Notes: generated from the sequence alone by a model not told the origin. Shown: positions 1,991 to 10,658, counted from the first letter of the stretch. The stretch is 64,000 nucleotides of DNA from Candidatus Dormiibacterota bacterium (GCA_963709585.1 CAVPXI010000006.1:224001-288000), one strand, 5' to 3'. Translations and numbers: made by a program.

Positions 1991-2019
1991 AAGGGCCGCC
2001 CATTCCCTTCGGAACTCGG

Positions 2020-2208
2020 TCAGCGACCGGGGTTCTTGACGTGGCCTTCGGTGTCGTCCTCGTCAGGCGTCGCCCGAGGGAAAACCGAGGGCTGCTCGTC
2101 GGGGTCGGCGCTCCTGTTTGGGTACTTGTGTCCGGAGGTGTCCTCTTCGTCGGTCTCGTTGATCCGGACCCCCGGGGCTTCCTGCTCGTCTGCCTTGTCC
2201 GTGCTCAT
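2020..2208 (-). CDS. 62-aa acidic peptide with two DE(E/D)DT(S/E)GH repeats; putative precursor peptide
   Basis: AGGAG RBS 7 nt before ATG; internal duplication DEQ...DEEDTSGH-KYPNR / DEQ...DEDDTEGH-VKNPGR; downstream hairpin. Confidence 0.75.
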   Translation of the reverse strand: MSTDKADEQEAPGVRINETDEEDTSGHKYPNRSADPDEQPSVFPRATPDEDDTEGHVKNPGR

Positions 2209-2304
2209 TGCCTGTCTCCTGTGGCGGCTGGGCCGCTGCTGTTGTGTTGCCCACATTCTGCGGAATCGAGATGGGGGAGTCAGTCGTCCACCTGACAGCT
2301 TCCG

Positions 2305-2320
2305 TGTCGGCGATCTGACA
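2305..2320. promoter_or_regulatory. Crp/CooA-type box TGTCG-N6-TGACA upstream of the peptide gene
   Basis: TGTCG-GCGATC-TGACA; identical arms recur at 4702-4717; adjacent Crp-family gene. Confidence 0.6.
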
Positions 2321-2361
2321 CGGCGGGGCAGCGACGACAGCGCAGGGAGGAGCCGGCGAGA

Positions 2362-3057
2362 TCAGTCGTGCTGGCCTGCTCTCCGTTGCAGCAGTTCCGG
2401 CTTCCGGATCACGATGCGCCGGCCGTCCAGCTCGACATATCCCAGCCGCTCAAAGGCGTTGAGGACCTGGTTGACGCTCTGCCGCGAACCGCCAACCATG
2501 TTGGCGAGGTCCGACTGAGTCAGATGCAGGTCCAGCGCCCGCCCCCCCGGTACGGGGGTGCCGCGCTCGTCCGCGAGGCGGAGCAGCAGTTTCGCGACGC
2601 GACCGTGCAGGTCCAGGAAGACCAAGTCGGCGGCTTGGTCGGTGAGCCGGCGCACCATCGTTCCCAGCGACCGCAGGAGACGGTCGACCAGCTCGGGCGA
2701 ACCCCGAAGCGCTTCCAGCAACGCAGTTCGACTGATCAGCAACACTGTGGTGGCCTCGACCGCCGCGGCCGATGCCGACCTCAGACCGCCATCGACCGTG
2801 GGCAGCTCACCGAACACCGATGACGGTTCCAGGGTCACGAGCAGCATCTCGTCGCCGTCGGGCGAGCTCCGGTAGACCTTCACGAGGCCGGTGACGACAA
2901 CACACAGTGCGTCACCGGCGTCGTCCTCACGGAAGATGACCTCTCCGCGCGCATACGACCGCCGGACCGCTCTCTCGGCAAGCCGCTCCACGGCGTCCGG
3001 CGGAAGCGTCCCAAAGAGGGAGGTGTTCTGCAGGAGCGCCTCATCGCCGCTGGTCAT
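2362..3057 (-). CDS. Crp/Fnr-family transcriptional regulator
   Basis: cNMP pocket FGELPTVDGGLRSASA; HTH LTQSDLANMVGGSRQSVNQ; GGAGG RBS. Confidence 0.95.
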   Translation of the reverse strand: MTSGDEALLQNTSLFGTLPPDAVERLAERAVRRSYARGEVIFREDDAGDALCVVVTGLVKVYRSSPDGDEMLLVTLEPSSVFGELPTVDGGLRSASAAAVEATTVLLISRTALLEALRGSPELVDRLLRSLGTMVRRLTDQAADLVFLDLHGRVAKLLLRLADERGTPVPGGRALDLHLTQSDLANMVGGSRQSVNQVLNAFERLGYVELDGRRIVIRKPELLQRRAGQHD

Positions 3058-3133
3058 TCGACGTGCCTCCCTGGGCGTCACGTTTACAGGCGCGCTCCGA
3101 CGGCGCCGGCGAATTGTAGAGTGCCGGAACACC

Positions 3134-3883
3134 ATGGGTGATCGCGATTCGACGAGAGACGTGCTGGCAGATCTGACACAGCTCGCGGCCGACCTCGGCC
3201 CGGTGCTCCGCCCCCGCCGCGACGAGGAGTTTCTGCAGGCAATCGTCGAAACCGCGCGCCTCGTCTTCGACGCAGCGGCCTGCTCGATCGCGCTCTTCGA
3301 CGAGCGCGAGGAGGAACTCGAGTTCCGTGTCGCCGCTGGGAGTGGCGCCGAGGCGACCATCGGCCTGCGTATCCCCGCAGATCGCGGGATCGCGGGCTGG
3401 GCGCTCATGTCCGGACAGTCGATCGCCGTCGACGACGTCCGCCAGGATCCCCGCTTCGCCGCGGATGTCGCCGAGCGCACCGGCTACGTGCCCAACGCGA
3501 TCATGGCCATGCCGCTGGAGAGCGATCGTCAGACCTTCGGCGTTATCGAGGTGCTCGACCGTCAGCGGGGTGGCGGCGAAGGCGTCGACGACATGGAGTT
3601 GCTCGCCTTGTTCGCCCGACAAGCGACCCTTGCGGTCGAGACATCGCGGATCTTCTCGGGCCTCGGACAGGCGATCCTCGAGTCGGCCGCGCTCGCGACC
3701 CAGCGAGACGACCTTCGCCTCGCCCTTGAGCAGCGAGCCGCTCAGGCACCGCGACCCCAGGCGGAGCTTGCCGAACTCGCGCTGCTCTTTCACGATCTCG
3801 GCGTCCTCGGGCCCGAGGAACGGCGTGTCGCAGCCCGCATTGCAGACGACTTTCTCGCATACGCACGCAAGCAGCGCCGGTGA
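3134..3883 (+). CDS. GAF domain protein
   Basis: AACSIALFD...GIAGW...VDDVRQDPRF...MAMPL...GVIEVLDR; stop overlaps the S8 start (GTGA). Confidence 0.9.
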   Translation: MGDRDSTRDVLADLTQLAADLGPVLRPRRDEEFLQAIVETARLVFDAAACSIALFDEREEELEFRVAAGSGAEATIGLRIPADRGIAGWALMSGQSIAVDDVRQDPRFAADVAERTGYVPNAIMAMPLESDRQTFGVIEVLDRQRGGGEGVDDMELLALFARQATLAVETSRIFSGLGQAILESAALATQRDDLRLALEQRAAQAPRPQAELAELALLFHDLGVLGPEERRVAARIADDFLAYARKQRR

Positions 3884-4686
3884 AGCCGGCCTGGGCGTGG
3901 CAGTTCGACCCGGCGACCCTGCAGCGAGTGCGGGCGTCGCTCCCATCGGCGATCTCACGTGAGTGGGCGTGGGAGGGGAGCACCGGGGCAGGCGTCAAGG
4001 TGGCGGTCATTGACAGCGGGATCGATGCTGCTTATCCCGGAGTCGGGCCCCTCGCCGGTGGTGCGGTCGTCGTTGCCGATGCCGACGCGCCGCGAGGCGC
4101 TCGTGTTATCGAGGGGCCGCACGAGGATCTCTTCGGCCACGGCACGGCGTGTGCCGCGATCATTCGCCAGGCCGCGCCTGATGCCGAGCTGTACAGCATC
4201 AGGGTCCTTGGCGAACGGCTGACGGGACGCGGCATCGTGTTCGCCGAGGGCATGCGCTGGGCGCTCGCTGAAGGCATGCAGGTGCTCAACATGAGTCTGA
4301 GCACGTCGCGCGCAGACTACTTCGGGGTGTTCCACGAGATCGCCGACGACGCCTATTTCCAGGGAGCGATGGTCGTGTGCGCCGTCAACAACGTCCGCGC
4401 GCCAAGCTATCCGTCGCAGTACGCGTCGGTGTTTTCCGTCGCCGCTCACGAGGGACGGGATCCATTTCGCCTCGACTACAACCTCTCGCCACCGGTTGAA
4501 TTCGGAGCGCCTGGGATCGACCTCGAGGTCGGCTGGCTCGGCGGGAGGACCATTCGCGCGACCGGCAACAGCTTCGCGGCGCCGCACATCGCCGGATTGA
4601 TCGCTCGCATCCTCGGCAAGCATCCGGCGCTGACTCCGTTTCAGATGAAGACGGTCCTGATGGCGCTGGCGGACAACGCCTCGTAG
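3880..4686 (+). CDS. S8 (subtilisin-like) serine peptidase, no signal peptide
   Basis: Triad motifs VAVIDSG, GHGTACA, GNSFAAPHIAG. Confidence 0.95.
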   Translation: MKPAWAWQFDPATLQRVRASLPSAISREWAWEGSTGAGVKVAVIDSGIDAAYPGVGPLAGGAVVVADADAPRGARVIEGPHEDLFGHGTACAAIIRQAAPDAELYSIRVLGERLTGRGIVFAEGMRWALAEGMQVLNMSLSTSRADYFGVFHEIADDAYFQGAMVVCAVNNVRAPSYPSQYASVFSVAAHEGRDPFRLDYNLSPPVEFGAPGIDLEVGWLGGRTIRATGNSFAAPHIAGLIARILGKHPALTPFQMKTVLMALADNAS

Positions 4687-4701
4687 TCCGCGTCTGCCGC
4701 T

Positions 4702-4717
4702 TGTCGCTCTGCTGACA
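4702..4717. promoter_or_regulatory. Second TGTCG-N6-TGACA box, upstream of the cNMP-binding gene
   Basis: TGTCG-CTCTGC-TGACA in a 57-nt intergenic gap. Confidence 0.6.
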
Positions 4718-4743
4718 GACATTGCACCCCCGTTTCGCTGACA

Positions 4744-5178
4744 ATGCGAGACATGACTGACAAGAAAACGCTGGTCAACCTGCTGAGTCGCAATCAACTC
4801 TTCGACGAGCTGAACAAGAAGGATGTCCTCGCGCTGATCAACTCGGCGAAGGAAGTTGACCACCGCGAGGGTCAGATGATCGTGGTCGAGGGGCATCCCG
4901 GAGTCGGTTTTCATCTGCTTCTTCAGGGCACCGCGATCGTGAGCAGAAATGGCCGAAAGCTCCGGACGCTGGGGCCTGGCGAGACGTTCGGCGATATCGC
5001 GGTCATCGACGGAGGACCTCGCAGTGCGTCGGTGCAAGCAGCGACCGCGCTCCGCACCCTGTCTCTGCCGCCATGGGAGTTCAAACCTCTGCTCCTGGAG
5101 CACCCGCGGATCGCCTACAGGCTGCTCGTCAAGCTCTGCACGCTGCTCCGAGAGGCCGAGAAGCGGCCGCCGCTCTAG
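4744..5178 (+). CDS. Stand-alone cyclic nucleotide-binding protein
   Basis: GQMIVVEG, LGPGETFGDIAVIDGGPRSASV. Confidence 0.9.
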   Translation: MRDMTDKKTLVNLLSRNQLFDELNKKDVLALINSAKEVDHREGQMIVVEGHPGVGFHLLLQGTAIVSRNGRKLRTLGPGETFGDIAVIDGGPRSASVQAATALRTLSLPPWEFKPLLLEHPRIAYRLLVKLCTLLREAEKRPPL

Positions 5179-5190
5179 TCGCCTCGGGGC

Positions 5191-5217
5191 TGTGAACGCG
5201 GGGCTGATGCGTTCACA
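5191..5217. terminator. Hairpin between convergent genes
   Basis: TGTGAACGC-N9-GCGTTCACA between stops at 5178 and 5220. Confidence 0.45.
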
Positions 5218-5219
5218 CG

Positions 5220-8200
5220 TCAGGCACGCGCTTGTTGAGCCTCGGCCGCCGCTCCGGCGTCGAGCATGAGGGCGTCAACACGTTCGATCCACGGCGCGGC
5301 GGCGAGTTCGACGAATGACGTCCGCGCGGGTACGAACAACGCTTCGGCCTCGCCGCGCCGGCCACGATGCACGAGTGTGTCGCCGAGTTCCAATCGTGAG
5401 ACGGCGACCCAGAACGGCATCTGCCGCTGCTGAAACGCTGCGATCGCAGCGAGCGATTCTCGCATCGCGTCCTCTTCACGTCCCTCGAGCTCATCGAGGC
5501 GCGCGCGGAACCGCAGGATATGGGCATGCACGATCGGCCACACCGCGAGCGGGAAGCGTTCGGTTACCGCCTCGAGTAGCCGGCGTACCATCTTGAGGTC
5601 GCCCACGGCGAAAGCGGCTTCCACCGCCTCGACGATCGCCCAGCGCGAACCGTCGACAAAGTCCGAGGCGCCGCTGAAACGCTTTACGACGTCACCCATC
5701 AGCGCAAGGGCTTCACCGCTGCGCCCTTGCGCGCGGAGAATCGCGGAGCTCGCGGCGTCATGCGAGAGTTGATACTCGGGTCCCGCTCGCGCGCAGATGT
5801 CGGCCAAACGCTCGACGAGCCTGCGCGCATCGGGCTCCTCCCCGCGCCACACGTGGGGCCACGCCGCGAAGACCAGCTCGGCTCCGAGCAGCAAGTCCAC
5901 CACCACCACTTCTTTGGCAAGCAAGTCGGCCACCACGCCGCTGGCTTCATCCCAACGACCGAGGTCCACCAGCACGGGTATCCGCCCGATGAGAAATTGG
6001 ATCTCGTCTCGACGCAGTCCCATCAACCGTGCGAGGTCGAGCGCTGCGGCGGTGTATTCTGCCGCGCGCGCGGGTTCGAAACCCTGTAAAGAGGCAGCCA
6101 GGTTGTTATACGCACGCAACGCCGCTCCGTGAAGATCCGACGCAAGAGCCTGGTCGAGCGCACACGTCAGCAGGGCACGCGCCTCCTCGTGCCGTCCGCG
6201 ACCGCCGAGGATGAGTTCCTTGGTATTGACCGCCTGGCAGAACACCTGCGCATGTCCGTGTCGCTCGGCGAAGTCCAGGGCAAGTTCGACCCGCTCCATG
6301 GCGACGACGCCGCTGCGGCCGGACAGAACCATCCGGCGCGCGACCTCCGCCGCGACCACCGCCAGGTCCTCCTCGTGGTTGGCATCGCCAAACTCCACCG
6401 CGCTGAGCTCAACGAACGCGCGCTCCATCCGATCCGCGGCTTGGTCACGCTTCAATTCGTGAGCATCGATTTCGGCCAGGGTGATCGATGTCCGAGCAGC
6501 CGCGCCGAGACGACCGGCCGCCGCGTGCAGCGCAACCGCCTCGTCGAGATGCCGCCTGGCCTTTTGTGCATGGACCTGCTGCCACGCCATCTGTCCGGCG
6601 CGAGCGTGCAGCGTGGCCAGGTCAGCGGCGTCAGCGAGCTCAAGCGCACGTTCGTAGTAGTGCTCGGCGGACGCGGCGGCAGCGAGCGATGCTGCATGGT
6701 CGCCTGCTCGCACCAGCGCATCACGTGCACGCTGGCGGAGTCCCCCTGCGTCGAGGGCATCAACGTCAGCCTCGAACGCCTCGAGGAGGTGCGAGGCGAT
6801 GACTTCGGCAACTCCTTCCTCCTCGCTCCACGCGCTCTCCAGGTATGCGGCCGCGCTCAGGTGGCGCACCTTGCGATCGCGTCGGGACAGTGTCCCGTAC
6901 GCGACGCTCCGCACCAGGTCTTGCACAAAGACATACTGGCCGCGCTCGGGTGATCTCGGGTCCGACTGGATGGCAAGCAGATCTTTGCTGACCAGCGTGG
7001 CGAGGCCCGGCTCGACTGTGTCCGTCGCGAGCGCCGTGACCGCCCGCAGCCCTGCGGCGGTAAAGGATTTGCCGAGGACCGCCGCATCCTGCAACAGCTG
7101 ACGCTCGGCACCACCGATGCTGTCCAGCCGTGCGGCGATCAGAGCGTGGAGGGTCTCGGGGACCTCCAGCGAGTTCGAGCGATCCCTCGACGTGGAACGT
7201 GCCGCCCCTCGCGACGAGGAGGCCGCGGTCCATCAGCATCCGCACCGTTTCGACTGCGTAGAGAGGCACGCCCGCGGCGCGCTCGAGAATGCGCGCGCTC
7301 AGGTCGTCGGGAAGGCCTGGTGCCATGCCGGCCAGCAGCTGCGACATGGCCTCAGGCGGAAGCGGATCCAGAGAGAGCGAGGTGGACCCTCGCTTGCCCG
7401 TGCCCCAACCTGAACGACGATCGGCCATCTCCGGGCGCGCCAGCGTGATCACAAGGATCGGGGAGTTGCGCGACCACTCGAGGAGGTATTCGATGAAGTC
7501 AAGCAGACCGCTATCGGCCCATTGCAGATCCTCGAACACAAGGACGGTGAGGTTCTCTGCAGCGAGGCGCTCGAAGAAGAAGCGCCACGCCGCGTAGAGA
7601 TCGCGCGGATCCGTGGCGACGCGCTCCTCGAGACCGACGAGGTGCGCGAGGCGGGGTTCCACCCACCGCCGCTCCTCACCCGGCTCGACGAATTCCTCGA
7701 CGGTACGCCGCAACTTCTCACGCGCCAACTCCGGTGGCTCGTTGTCGAGAATGCCGGCACGCATACGCACCATCTCGCTCAGCGCCCAGTAGGCGACACC
7801 ATCTCCGTAGGCGAGACAGCGCCCGCGATGCCACCAGATGGGTTCCGTGACCCCGTCGACGTACTTGAAGAACTCCCAACCGAGGCGCGACTTCCCGACG
7901 CCGGCAAGGCCGACGATCGAGAGCAGGCGCGCCGTGCGCTCCTCGCCGGTCGCGTGCAGGAACTCCTTGATCAGTCGCAACTCCCGGTCGCGTCCGACGA
8001 ACGGCGGTTCCAGTCCGGTCGGGCGGAGCGCCCCTCCGGCCGCCGCAACGACGCGTTGCGCTCGCCACAGACGCTCCGGTTCAGGCTTTCCCTTGAGCTC
8101 GTGCACCCCAGTGTCCTCGTAAGCGATCGCGGCTTCCGTGGCGACGCGAGTCCCGTCACCGACATAGACAGCTCCGGGCTCAGCCGCTGCCTGCACGCGA

Positions 8201-8799
8201 GATGCAGTGTTGATGAGGTCGCCGGCGACCATCCCCTCGCCTCTCACTCCGACGCTGACCGCGACTTCGCCGGTCATCAGCCCCGCTCGGGCCTGCAGAC
8301 CGGCCGCACCGACCTCGTCGCCAAATGCGACGACGGCATCGACCAGCTCGAGCGCTGCGCGCACCGCTCGCTCGGCGTCGTTTTCTTGACTGGTGGGCAC
8401 GCCCCACACGGCCATGACAGCGTCGCCGATGAACTTTTCAACCTGGCCACCGTAGCGAGCGATGATCGTGCGCGCGGTGTCGAAGTAGCGACTCAGGAGT
8501 TCGCGGACGTCCTCAGCGTCGCGCTGCTGAGAGAGTGGTGTGAATCCCACCAGGTCGGCAAACAGCACGGTCACATGGCGGCGTTCGGTGAGACGCGCCG
8601 GCTCGATATGGGCTGGCGCAGATGAGGGGCTCGTCCGCGAGGGTTCCGCCGACAGCTGTGCGCCGCACCCGCCGCAAAAACGCTCGTCCTCGTCGTTCGG
8701 CGCCCCGCAGGCGGGGCAAGGCCGGTCCAGAGAGGAGCCACATTGGCCGCAAAAGCGCCGGCCCGCCCGGTTTGCGGAACCGCAGGCGGTGCAGGTCAT
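5220..8799 (-). CDS. Double zinc-ribbon / class III adenylate cyclase / STAND AAA ATPase / TPR protein; apparent +1 frameshift at about 7173, probably a sequencing error
   Basis: Four CxxC; FADLVGFT, EKFIGDAV, GDLINTASR; GLAGVGKS, VFEDLQWAD; removing one base gives SLDSLEVPETLHALIAARLD, continuing into ORF 5220-7094. Confidence 0.9.
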
Positions 8800-8947
8800 C
8801 CGGGCAAGACTACTCGCCGCTGAGTAGGGTTGACGCTCGAGCCAGGCGAAGGCCGGGACCTTCAGCGATCCGGGGGGCGGGTCGAACTCAAGGTGAGCCC
8901 CGGTTACCTATGATGCACCGCGTCGACAGTGGAGTTGGGAGAACGCC

Positions 8948-9373
8948 ATGACAAGTCGGAGCGCGCAGGTCAACTTGCTCAGCGGGGTCGCGCTCTTCGC
9001 CGGGCTGACCAAGAAGGAGGCCGGGTTCGTGCTCCAATTCATGCGCGATCATGACTATCCGGCTGGGAAGGTCATTGTCGAAGAGGGCGAGATGGGTGGC
9101 CGTTTCTTTCTCATCGTCTCGGGCACCGCAGTGGTAACGCGACGCGGACGTCGTATTCGCAGACTGGGTCCTGGCGATTCGTTCGGAGACATCGCGCTCA
9201 TCGATGGAGGTCCACGATCAGCGACGGTGGCGGCGGAAACACCCGTCAGTACGTTGTCGCTGGCAGTCTGGAATTTCAAGGCAACGCTGCTCGAGAGTCC
9301 GAGCATCACCTACAAGCTGCTGCTGGCCCTTTGCAGAAGACTGCGTGATGCGGAGTCGCGCGCGCCGATCTGA
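8948..9373 (+). CDS. Second stand-alone cyclic nucleotide-binding protein
   Basis: LGPGDSFGDIALIDGGPRSATV; paralogue of 4744-5178. Confidence 0.9.
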   Translation: MTSRSAQVNLLSGVALFAGLTKKEAGFVLQFMRDHDYPAGKVIVEEGEMGGRFFLIVSGTAVVTRRGRRIRRLGPGDSFGDIALIDGGPRSATVAAETPVSTLSLAVWNFKATLLESPSITYKLLLALCRRLRDAESRAPI

Positions 9374-9383
9374 CCCCCGAGCG

Positions 9384-10658
9384 TCAGGCCACGTCCTGAT
9401 GCCCGACACTCGCGTCGGCGACATTCCCTTCGATGGCGACAACGCGGTCCAGCACGCCCTGACGCAACCCATCGAGCCCGTTACGCACGTCGCCGGTTGC
9501 AGTCGCGATAGAAGTGAGCTTGGACTTCATACCGGCGATCGCATTGAGCTGCGAGCGAATGCCCTCGAGGTCGCGACGAACCGCCGCGGCATCGACAACG
9601 TCCGCATGATCCCTGACCGCGACGAGCGCCAGGGCGCGAGCGAGACGCACGGCGGCCGTGAACGCCGTGTCGTCCGGATCGTCCGGATCGAGTTCGCAGA
9701 TGATGTGCTCGCCGTGCAGCGTGAACGGCGCGCATCCTGCCGGAGAGTTGCCCGCGCGATACACGGCCACAGCCACCACCGCATCGCGATTGCGCCGGGT
9801 CTCATCGAGATCGCGGCAGAGCTTGGCCAGCCCGACCCGACCGCTCTTGGCCTCGACCGCAACGCGGACGGGAAGGCCGCGCGTCCACGAGGGATCAAGC
9901 GTGATCAGAAAGTCGCCTTTGCGACTGCGTACGCTGTTGCCGACAGCGGTCCCGGTCGGCTCGACAAGATCACCGGTCCCGCGCAGCAGCGTGTCGAGAC
10001 GAGCCTCGACGGCATCCTCGAAGTCCAGCCCCTTGGCGGTGCCCTTCTCCCGCTCGTCTGAGCGCGCGTCGCGTGCGGCCTCGAGGCGAATCAGGCGATC
10101 GCTGACGTCCTTCAGCATCTCGCGCATCTCGCCGCGAAATCCATGCAGTGGACTGGCCGCGAGACGCGGATCGAGCATCCGGCTGATGATCGCGCCGTCG
10201 CCGTCGAAATAGCCGGACAGCAACGTGCGCATGCGGCCGATCGCGCTGTCGCGCCGCTCCTCGTCGAAGAGATCGTCGACCAGGCGGCGCAAGGTGCCGT
10301 TCTCGCCGAGGAATTGGTCAAGCGTCCTTGGGAGCTTCCCATCCTTGGCGGCGAACGTCTCGCGCAGTGCGACGTCCAGGGCCGCGGCCGCTCTGTCATG
10401 CGACTCGTCGGTGCGATGCATGAGCCGCTCGAACTCGCGTGCGACGAAGTCGACGTTGAGCGTGACGCCGGCATTGCGCAGCGCGATGAGGCCGACCTTG
10501 AGCCCGCGCTCTACCACCGCCGGCCGATCAACCTCGGGGTGATCGCCGACGTACGCCGCCAATTCGGCGTCGTAGAGGGAAAGACCCGTGACGGCGATGT
10601 GGTCTCCCTCGACGCGAACGTCGCATCCAAGGGTGATGGGTTCTACCTTCCTGAGCAT
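9384..10658 (-). CDS. Coiled-coil protein with a PD-(D/E)XK-like (RmuC-like) nuclease region
   Basis: KGLDFE...KGDFLI...VAVEAK pattern flanked by helical segments. Confidence 0.6.
   Translation of the reverse strand: MLRKVEPITLGCDVRVEGDHIAVTGLSLYDAELAAYVGDHPEVDRPAVVERGLKVGLIALRNAGVTLNVDFVAREFERLMHRTDESHDRAAAALDVALRETFAAKDGKLPRTLDQFLGENGTLRRLVDDLFDEERRDSAIGRMRTLLSGYFDGDGAIISRMLDPRLAASPLHGFRGEMREMLKDVSDRLIRLEAARDARSDEREKGTAKGLDFEDAVEARLDTLLRGTGDLVEPTGTAVGNSVRSRKGDFLITLDPSWTRGLPVRVAVEAKSGRVGLAKLCRDLDETRRNRDAVVAVAVYRAGNSPAGCAPFTLHGEHIICELDPDDPDDTAFTAAVRLARALALVAVRDHADVVDAAAVRRDLEGIRSQLNAIAGMKSKLTSIATATGDVRNGLDGLRQGVLDRVVAIEGNVADASVGHQDVA

Follow-up and report, generated by a model that had tools for sequence, protein, structure and literature searches.

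What does a small repeat peptide do among cyclic-nucleotide signalling genes and a cytoplasmic protease? The question is raised by seven genes at positions 2020-9373 of a 64,000-nt stretch, the window (G000:C6:224001-288000), from a Candidatus Dormiibacterota bacterium (GCA_963709585.1, CAVPXI010000006.1), whose metagenome-assembled genome of 3.52 Mb comprises 24 contigs and is 88.8% complete. The original prediction had described a seven-gene signalling unit, and its inventory holds: all seven genes lie where it placed them, and every domain it named has a Pfam match (weak for the TPR part of the cyclase). Comparison with related loci supports a functional unit conserved across phyla, but its composition differs from that proposed. 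The conserved core consists of the peptide, a Crp-family regulator, a GAF protein and an S8 protease, usually joined by an exporter that combines an MFS transporter with a domain binding cyclic nucleoside monophosphate (cNMP), and the cyclase-STAND gene is a frequent but variable neighbour. We lean, with a modest preference, towards a cNMP-wired peptide-processing cassette, in which a cNMP-gated cytoplasmic protease would cut a Crp-controlled multi-copy precursor and the pieces would be exported. The seven genes of the window are:

2020..2208, minus strand: repeat-peptide gene, 62 aa; ATG after a GGAG ribosome-binding site; motifs DTSGH and DTEGH; acidic, no Cys, no signal peptide
2362..3057, minus strand: Crp/Fnr-family regulator, 231 aa; Pfam cNMP_binding 1.6e-22, HTH_Crp_2 2e-18
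3134..3883, plus strand: stand-alone GAF protein, 249 aa; Pfam GAF 2.3e-18; C-terminal helical extension
3880..4686, plus strand: S8 protease, 268 aa; Pfam Peptidase_S8 1.2e-24; cytoplasmic-type, prodomain-less; GTG start
4744..5178, plus strand: cnmp1, stand-alone cNMP-binding protein 1, 144 aa; Pfam cNMP_binding 4.6e-15
5220..8799, minus strand: double zinc ribbon / class III cyclase / STAND ATPase / TPR-like gene; Pfam DZR, Guanylate_cyc 1.2e-21, AAA_16 1.1e-21, weak TPR_10; two frames in the window
8948..9373, plus strand: cnmp2, stand-alone cNMP-binding protein 2, 141 aa; Pfam cNMP_binding 3.4e-17

An open reading frame at 9384-10658 was considered as a further member and excluded, as it has no family match and is not kept beside the relatives' loci.

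To define which of these genes belong together, we compared related loci, taking one genome per species. The scan confirmed 524 such loci, of which the best 80 were kept; their carriers are Dormibacterota, numerous Actinomycetota and a small number of Chloroflexota, with Motilibacter deserti (L112) as the single cultured strain. Across these phyla the core is conserved at ~60% identity with a fixed gene order. The GAF gene lies directly upstream of the S8 gene in 80/80 loci, the GAF stop and the S8 start overlapping in 42 of the 70 loci measured and lying within 65 nt of each other in all 70. Neighbour counts were taken from the 51 of the 80 loci with at least 5 kb on both sides. A search of S8+GAF neighbourhoods had been set as a test of the original prediction, and it recovers a DD[VT]EG[HQ] peptide in 41 of these 51 loci and Crp in 48, but the cyclase-STAND gene in only 26; the exporter is present in 40 and a small cNMP protein in 22. 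The cyclase count is well above the ~7% estimated from the density of this family in the genome of the window. When the other open reading frames in the 80 loci were clustered, the peptide itself formed the top cluster and every further family was confined to 15 loci or fewer.

The same arrangement is seen closer to the window. The database relatives of its peptide and S8 genes are assigned to Candidatus Dormibacterota/Dormibacteria, and an S8 orthologue was found in 14 of 24 same-genus and 2 of 16 sister-family genomes. In the 16 relatives' loci that were fetched, GAF and S8 are adjacent in 15, the sixteenth being cut by a contig end; a Crp-family gene adjoins in 14, and a neighbouring peptide orthologue was recognised by its motif in 14 and by tblastn in a fifteenth (L025). 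Even species samples gave an S8 orthologue in 32/301 species of the class Actinomycetes and in 33/301 of the window's phylum, where one positive, G486, is an unpublished genome. Within its own genome the peptide gene has no genuine second copy, the other match to the motif expression lying inside a 449-aa frame, and both small cNMP paralogues are located in this locus with no others of their kind genome-wide; the clustering of the window genes is therefore more than chance. The S8 of the window shares 66-72% identity with copies in several metagenome-assembled Actinomycetota genomes, but no more than 52-54% with the sister family in its own order; 13 genomes from other genera in its family yielded no S8 copy. 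Judging from these sequences, the cassette may have moved between phyla. None of the runs listed as containing the stretch is an RNA run; X20, in which the contigs derive from relatives, is labelled RNA-Seq and is probably DNA.

The repeat peptide itself matches no Pfam or NCBIfam family, and all of its database relatives are unnamed or 'hypothetical'. We counted 253 motifs in 69 distinct peptides, using a regular expression in which G and H/Q were fixed and far more variety was permitted elsewhere in the motif. Position -5 is D in 213 motifs, -4 is D in 233, -3 is V or T in 224 and -2 is E in 204, followed by G and then by H (206) or Q (47); this numbering differs from that of the cleavage comparison below, where H/Q is -1. 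Three to four basic residues follow each DD[VT]EG[HQ] motif. Peptides carry 2 to 8 copies with a period of mostly 13-16 residues, the units inside a single peptide are often identical, and 50 of the 69 peptides end 3-6 residues past the last motif. The family is rich in Asp, Glu and His, contains 4 Cys in 69 peptides, few hydrophobic residues and no signal peptide, and throughout one clade the motif His is replaced by Gln. To judge by its composition, the repeat peptide has the make-up of a multi-copy precursor. In the Motilibacter deserti genome there is no match to the Dormibacteria-type peptide profile A1; at its locus (L112:8826-9150) an operator-type box stands directly after S8, with a degenerate peptide carrying DDALGH and DDAHGH beside the box (found by eye) and then the MFS::cNMP exporter.

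How such a peptide gene could be controlled is indicated by its upstream region. The same Crp-type box had been proposed before two of the genes. A shared box is indeed present upstream of the peptide gene (two copies) and of cnmp1 (one), but it is the 16-bp palindrome TGTC-N8-GACA and not the canonical TGTGA-N6-TCACA, which has zero matches in 2000-9400 even allowing 2 mismatches. The non-coding features of the locus are:

2305..2320, unstranded: operator box 1, TGTC-N8-GACA, perfect; ~104 nt upstream of the peptide ATG
2282..2297, unstranded: operator box 2, TGTC-N8-GACA at 7/8 positions; 23 bp downstream of box 1
4702..4717, unstranded: operator box 3, TGTC-N8-GACA, perfect; centre ~35 nt upstream of the cnmp1 ATG
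2224..2236, minus strand: stem-loop in the peptide 5' leader, just before the ribosome-binding site; conserved in relatives
5192..5216, unstranded: terminator-like hairpin with 7-nt arms, between the convergent cnmp1 and cyclase genes

A TGTGA...TCACA-like sequence at 5192-5216 was considered as a Crp box and rejected, being the hairpin between the convergent genes. The leader stem-loop precedes the peptide ribosome-binding site in all genus orthologues, with the stem GCGGC/GCCGC in some and GGCGG/CCGCC in others.

On the peptide strand, box 1 reads TGTCAGATCGCCGACA. Of 15 orthologous promoters, 13 have it at one constant distance from the peptide start; the tandem pair with its 23-bp spacing is kept in 12 of the 15, one more has a single box, and the genome has no other pair of this kind. 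The same type of box is found upstream of the cnmp1 orthologues in L019/L035, L037 and L039. Across the related loci, a perfect TGTC-N8-GACA precedes 53 of 66 peptide open reading frames, compared to 1.66% of 5000 control windows from the same loci. Conversely, the loci, 1.08 Mb in all, contain 100 perfect boxes where ~10 would be expected (scaled from the composition figure), and 84 of them are found no more than 260 nt upstream of a cassette gene. By gene, these 84 precede the peptide (73), gaf (19), cnmp (9), crp (7) and the exporter (2), with some counted for two genes. If the conserved CAGAAT at 2255-2260 is the peptide -10 element, as the alignment would suggest, box 2 would be centred near -40, overlapping the -35 region, and box 1 near -64, an activator-like placement.

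The binder of TGTC-N8-GACA is most likely the Crp-family regulator, because it is the only DNA-binding protein that the cassette encodes. The regulator belongs to the Crp/Fnr family (PF00027 79.7 bits, PF13545 66.5 bits, both above cut-offs) and is not an equivalog of the cAMP-activated CRP (NF008732, 82.9 bits against a cut-off of 266; no TGTGA-N6-TCACA site). CooA-type members of the Crp/Fnr family bind TGTCA-N6-CGACA, likewise a 16-bp palindrome with TGTC/GACA arms; unlike CooA, the cassette regulator has none of the known haem ligands, and a cyclic nucleotide is its presumed effector. A similar palindrome occurs in an unrelated context at two near-duplicate sites, C15:29570-29613 (L115) and C21:124662-124706 (L116), where tandem TGTCAG-N4-CTGACA boxes stand between a MarR-family regulator and a glyoxalase/VOC-family gene. 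At the divergent GAF promoter, a -10-like TAGAGT is conserved ~13 nt before the GAF start (window 3100-3133 and orthologues) with no Shine-Dalgarno sequence, which suggests that the GAF-S8 operon transcript is leaderless or near-leaderless.

The coupling of the GAF gene to a signal-less subtilisin, as originally proposed, is borne out, as the S8 GTG start overlaps the GAF stop by 4 nt and the protein has no hydrophobic N-terminal leader. In runs X1 and X6 position 3880 is T rather than G, which gives a TTG start; the relative L038 also has TTG. The S8 residues D45, H87 and S231 are invariant in 29 sequences; N171 is invariant too and aligns with the oxyanion N155 of subtilisin BPN'. The protein thus has the triad in subtilisin order and the oxyanion Asn, and it scores 87.6 bits against a Pfam cut-off of 21.8, placing it in peptidase family S8. 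No Inhibitor_I9 domain was found in Pfam and the catalytic domain starts ~30 residues in; lacking an I9-type propeptide or a secretion signal, the S8 protein resembles intracellular, prodomain-less forms. For type VII secretion mycosins (TIGR03921) it stays below the cut-off, at 96.9 bits against 278.75. Its best NCBIfam match is QhpE (NF049966, 1e-30), a small subtilisin that trims the QhpC leader in the maturation of quinohemoprotein amine dehydrogenase and is similarly short and prodomain-less. At 106.7 bits against a cut-off of 165 the cassette S8 is not an equivalog of QhpE, and no Qhp genes are among the conserved neighbours.

The premise that some GAF domains bind cNMP may apply to this GAF protein: the best solved relatives of its profile are the CyaB2 GAF (1ykd, 4.3e-33) and then PDE2, PDE5 and PDE10, all nucleotide-binding, with haem and other GAF types scoring far lower. 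It appears closest to the cNMP-binding type, and it shares a DPRF...TGY...P(L/V) stretch with the GAF domains of Anabaena CyaB2 and of PDE2, PDE5 and PDE10. In contrast to these, it is free-standing and has an extra C-terminal helical part, and its partner is a protease, where the others are fused to a cyclase or phosphodiesterase. It is a probable regulatory subunit of S8. Fold prediction of the pair from their own alignments gave an interface score (ipSAE) of 0.78 against 0.00 for the best of 3 controls, a mark reached by 116/157 solved complexes and 2/215 mismatched pairs; the runs agree in at least 81% of contacts, with partner pLDDT of at least 70. In the predicted complex, GAF loop 82-102 (W89, S93, Q95) contacts the S8 triad (D45, H87, S231) together with strands 110-115 and 139-145, which align with residues 96-101 and 125-131 of subtilisin BPN', its P4-P1 substrate-binding strands. 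The model supports that GAF and S8 bind, with the GAF loop predicted to lie across the catalytic cleft. Binding is also supported by existing fusion proteins: 12 of 85 long relatives have GAF and S8 in one chain, with GAF N-terminal in 5/5 checked.

Other fusions were seen among the long relatives. A sister family of S8 (P0127-P0193, e.g. P0145), 44-54% identical and mostly from Acidimicrobiales and other Actinomycetota, has a C-terminal Ser/Thr kinase fusion and no GAF partner; it accounts for 55 of the 85 long relatives, and one of two scanned has both domains in Pfam. This family suggests a wider class of signal-gated intracellular subtilisins. In single entries (P0122, P0151, P0194, P0200) S8 is fused to a Crp-type regulator (1) or to an MFS_3 transporter (3), one of each having been checked; these may be real or gene-calling artefacts of adjacent cassette genes.

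Where the protease might cut is suggested by a comparison with ElxP, a cytoplasmic S8 peptidase that recognises (D/E-5)(L/V-4)-x-x-(Q-1) (PMC10885120). With H/Q taken as -1, the cassette motif has D at -5 and V/T at -4, and because of this match to the ElxP site pattern we favour cleavage after G-H/Q. ElxP, a LanP-type leader peptidase of lanthipeptides, is a subtilisin-like enzyme that selects for an acidic -5, an aliphatic -4 and Gln at -1 (PMC10885120), where the cassette motif has D, V/T and H/Q. The cassette loci differ in having no lanthipeptide synthetase or other conserved modifying enzyme, in repeating the site 2-8 times, and in the GAF partner and cNMP regulators. A quick tree with two contrasts showed H105, F177, S189 and W208 of S8 in parallel in the main Q clade and in L109 (compared to its H-type sister L080). 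Covariation of S8 with the H-to-Q change is no more than a hint.

Built on the observed gene set, operator, catalytic residues and fusions and on the modelled GAF-S8 interface, with the ligand, the cleavage and its site, the export and the nucleotide source inferred, the cassette could work as follows. The small gene would yield a disordered precursor with 2 to 8 acidic DD[VT]EG[H/Q] copies, each with 3-4 basic residues behind it. One or two TGTC-N8-GACA palindromes at its promoter would most likely be bound by the adjacent Crp in response to a cyclic nucleotide. The prodomain-less S8 would be kept in the cytoplasm and made 1:1 with GAF, whose loop 82-102 would lie over the catalytic cleft, and nucleotide bound by GAF would open or re-aim the protease. 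S8 would then cleave the precursor motif by motif, most probably directly behind G-H/Q, with V/T as P4 and Asp as P5 in an ElxP-like pattern. The pieces would leave via the MFS_3 exporter with its own cNMP-binding domain, which in this genome lies on contig C23, and zinc-ribbon/cyclase/STAND/TPR proteins would supply the nucleotide on a ligand signal. An extension of the processing cassette into a new class of bacterial peptide signalling by second messenger seems unlikely to us. In that version, nucleotide from a ligand-gated STAND cyclase would induce the precursor via Crp, unplug the GAF-capped protease and open the exporter, and the released zwitterionic peptides of 12-16 residues would be sensed by the cyclase TPR in the same or neighbouring cells, closing a feedback loop.

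The presumed sources and outlets of this scheme are the cyclase and the exporter. The cyclase belongs to class III (Guanylate_cyc, 77.6 bits against a cut-off of 21.9), and on reading the sequence by eye its metal-binding Asp residues, Lys, Asn and Arg appear to be present. It is also a STAND NTPase (AAA_16, 78.5 bits against a cut-off of 32.6), with a weak TPR_10 match of 17.6 bits (cut-off 27.5, not reached). A STAND ATPase module is also carried by mycobacterial multidomain class III cyclases of the Rv0386 type, and they share the order of cyclase domain, AAA_16 ATPase and helical repeats; the cassette cyclase differs by its N-terminal double zinc ribbon and by the lack of a C-terminal LuxR-type helix-turn-helix in Pfam. 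The window has the gene in two frames, with the break near 7150-7175. One base, at 7174, is absent from the X1, X2 and X6 contigs (three runs, two studies), and without it the frames join; the orthologues in relatives are in a single frame. For these two reasons the break is probably an assembly error or a rare variant and not the mark of a dead gene. The two small cNMP proteins, cnmp1 and cnmp2, are 51% identical. The exporter is an MFS_1/MFS_3 transporter with a C-terminal cNMP_binding domain in Pfam, and its orthologue in this genome (80% identity) lies at C23:200564-202258, between two cyclase-STAND paralogues.

Several observations weigh against a peptide-processing cassette. A peptide detectable by the regular expression is missing from 10 of the 51 loci with full flanks, of which at least 3 (L112, L089, L047) carry degenerate ones. 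The original claim that Crp controls the peptide is supported by the operator at the peptide gene; against it, the same type of palindrome, in tandem, at the two MarR/VOC loci means that the palindrome alone does not identify Crp as the binder. TGTC-N8-GACA is not enriched genome-wide (32 found, 33 expected); a regulon from the genome-wide scan was rejected on this count and because of those two other tandem pairs. The crp-gaf intergenic region of the window has no perfect box, and the genus-wide alignment shows no conserved box there. The cyclase-STAND family occupies ~13 places in this genome, so that one neighbour here could be chance, and the exporter lies outside this genome's locus. The GAF 'SGQ' turn docked in the cleft is a general GAF feature and the interface is a model; the GAF-S8 fusions could in part be frameshift artefacts, since the two genes overlap. 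L069 is a counter-example to the S8-H/Q covariation, and of the S8 positions only 169 and 177 fall close to the S1 pocket.

The alternatives differ in what they make of the peptide. It could be that the small acidic protein is not a substrate but a regulator, a decoy, a pseudosubstrate inhibitor or a metal-binding disordered protein, and that GAF-S8 cleaves other proteins, such as the cNMP-binding proteins or Crp. This is somewhat unlikely in our view. Cleavage of the peptide is itself only inferred, and the richness in Asp, Glu and His, the one Crp-S8 and three MFS-S8 fusions, and the modelled GAF loop, which implies that the cleft accepts partners other than the peptide, would all be compatible with such a role; yet 2-8 near-identical units with a constant tail length fit a multi-copy precursor better than a folded regulator, the change of His to Gln throughout one clade argues against His as a metal ligand, and the motif matches the P5-P1 pattern of ElxP (PMC10885120). 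Under a second view, quite improbable, the locus would be a natural-product cluster for peptides that are made by ribosomes and modified after translation (RiPPs), its modifying enzymes encoded elsewhere and S8 serving just as a leader or spacer peptidase. In cyanobactin biosynthesis, the S8 proteases PatA and PatG free several peptides from the multi-cassette precursor PatE via conserved flanking recognition sequences, and the cassette shares with it the S8-family protease and the putative multi-peptide precursor. Cyanobactin and lanthipeptide clusters likewise combine a multi-core precursor with an S8 peptidase and an MFS exporter, and QhpE is the best NCBIfam match of S8. On the other hand, heterocyclase, macrocyclase domain and hydrophobic or Cys-rich cores are all lacking from the cassette, which would be regulated by cyclic nucleotide; the 80 loci have no additional enzyme family in common (genes elsewhere in the genomes were not searched for), and the nearly Cys-free, charged cores with few hydrophobics are unlike known RiPP cores.

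The remaining accounts concern the locus as a whole. A role in defence against phages, as a Pycsar- or STAND-type island in which the cyclase would make nucleotide on infection and cNMP-binding effectors would respond, draws on PADLOC matches to PycC (cyclase domain, 3.3e-20) and PycTIR (cNMP domains, 2.7e-13). We consider it very improbable, given that these matches are limited to the shared cyclase and cNMP domains, with none for GAF, the peptide or the TPR part, that the 141- and 144-aa cNMP proteins have neither of the effector domains (TIR or transmembrane) that define a Pycsar system, and that a core of ~60% identity with fixed gene order across phyla is unlike typical defence islands. 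A chance grouping in a genome rich in cNMP signalling genes could appeal to the ~13 places of the cyclase-STAND family, but the peptide and small cNMP genes occur only at this locus, and the same set is found again in 80 loci from three phyla, its copies sharing one operator. Already contradicted by the GAF-S8 adjacency, the operator and the neighbour counts, this last account has next to no likelihood. The cNMP-wired processing of a multi-copy precursor is the reading we retain.

Beside the locus, groEL occupies 244-1854 on the minus strand. Its upstream region, 1855-2019, contains the CIRCE half-sites TTAGCACTC and GAGTGCTAA at a spacing of 32 nt rather than 9; degenerate half-sites lie in the gap, and the region may represent two overlapping CIRCE elements.

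The original prediction knew of no described system with such a layout, and literature searches, judged partly from titles and the beginnings of abstracts, likewise found no published description of the cassette. Its central parts, for which no description was found, are the repeat-peptide family, a protease active site predicted to be capped by a nucleotide-sensor protein and an exporter presumably gated by the same messenger. Together, in a gene set that is found in many soil bacteria, they look like an undescribed way of signal-gated cutting of one small protein into many peptides. Carriers amount to about 1 in 10 of the sampled Actinomycetes species, with a similar rate in the window's phylum, and the cultured carrier Motilibacter deserti makes the cassette testable. 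If the mechanism is true, it would give cyclic-nucleotide signalling in soil bacteria a concrete output, provide a ligand-switchable, sequence-specific protease, and constitute a bacterial counterpart of polyprotein hormone precursors.

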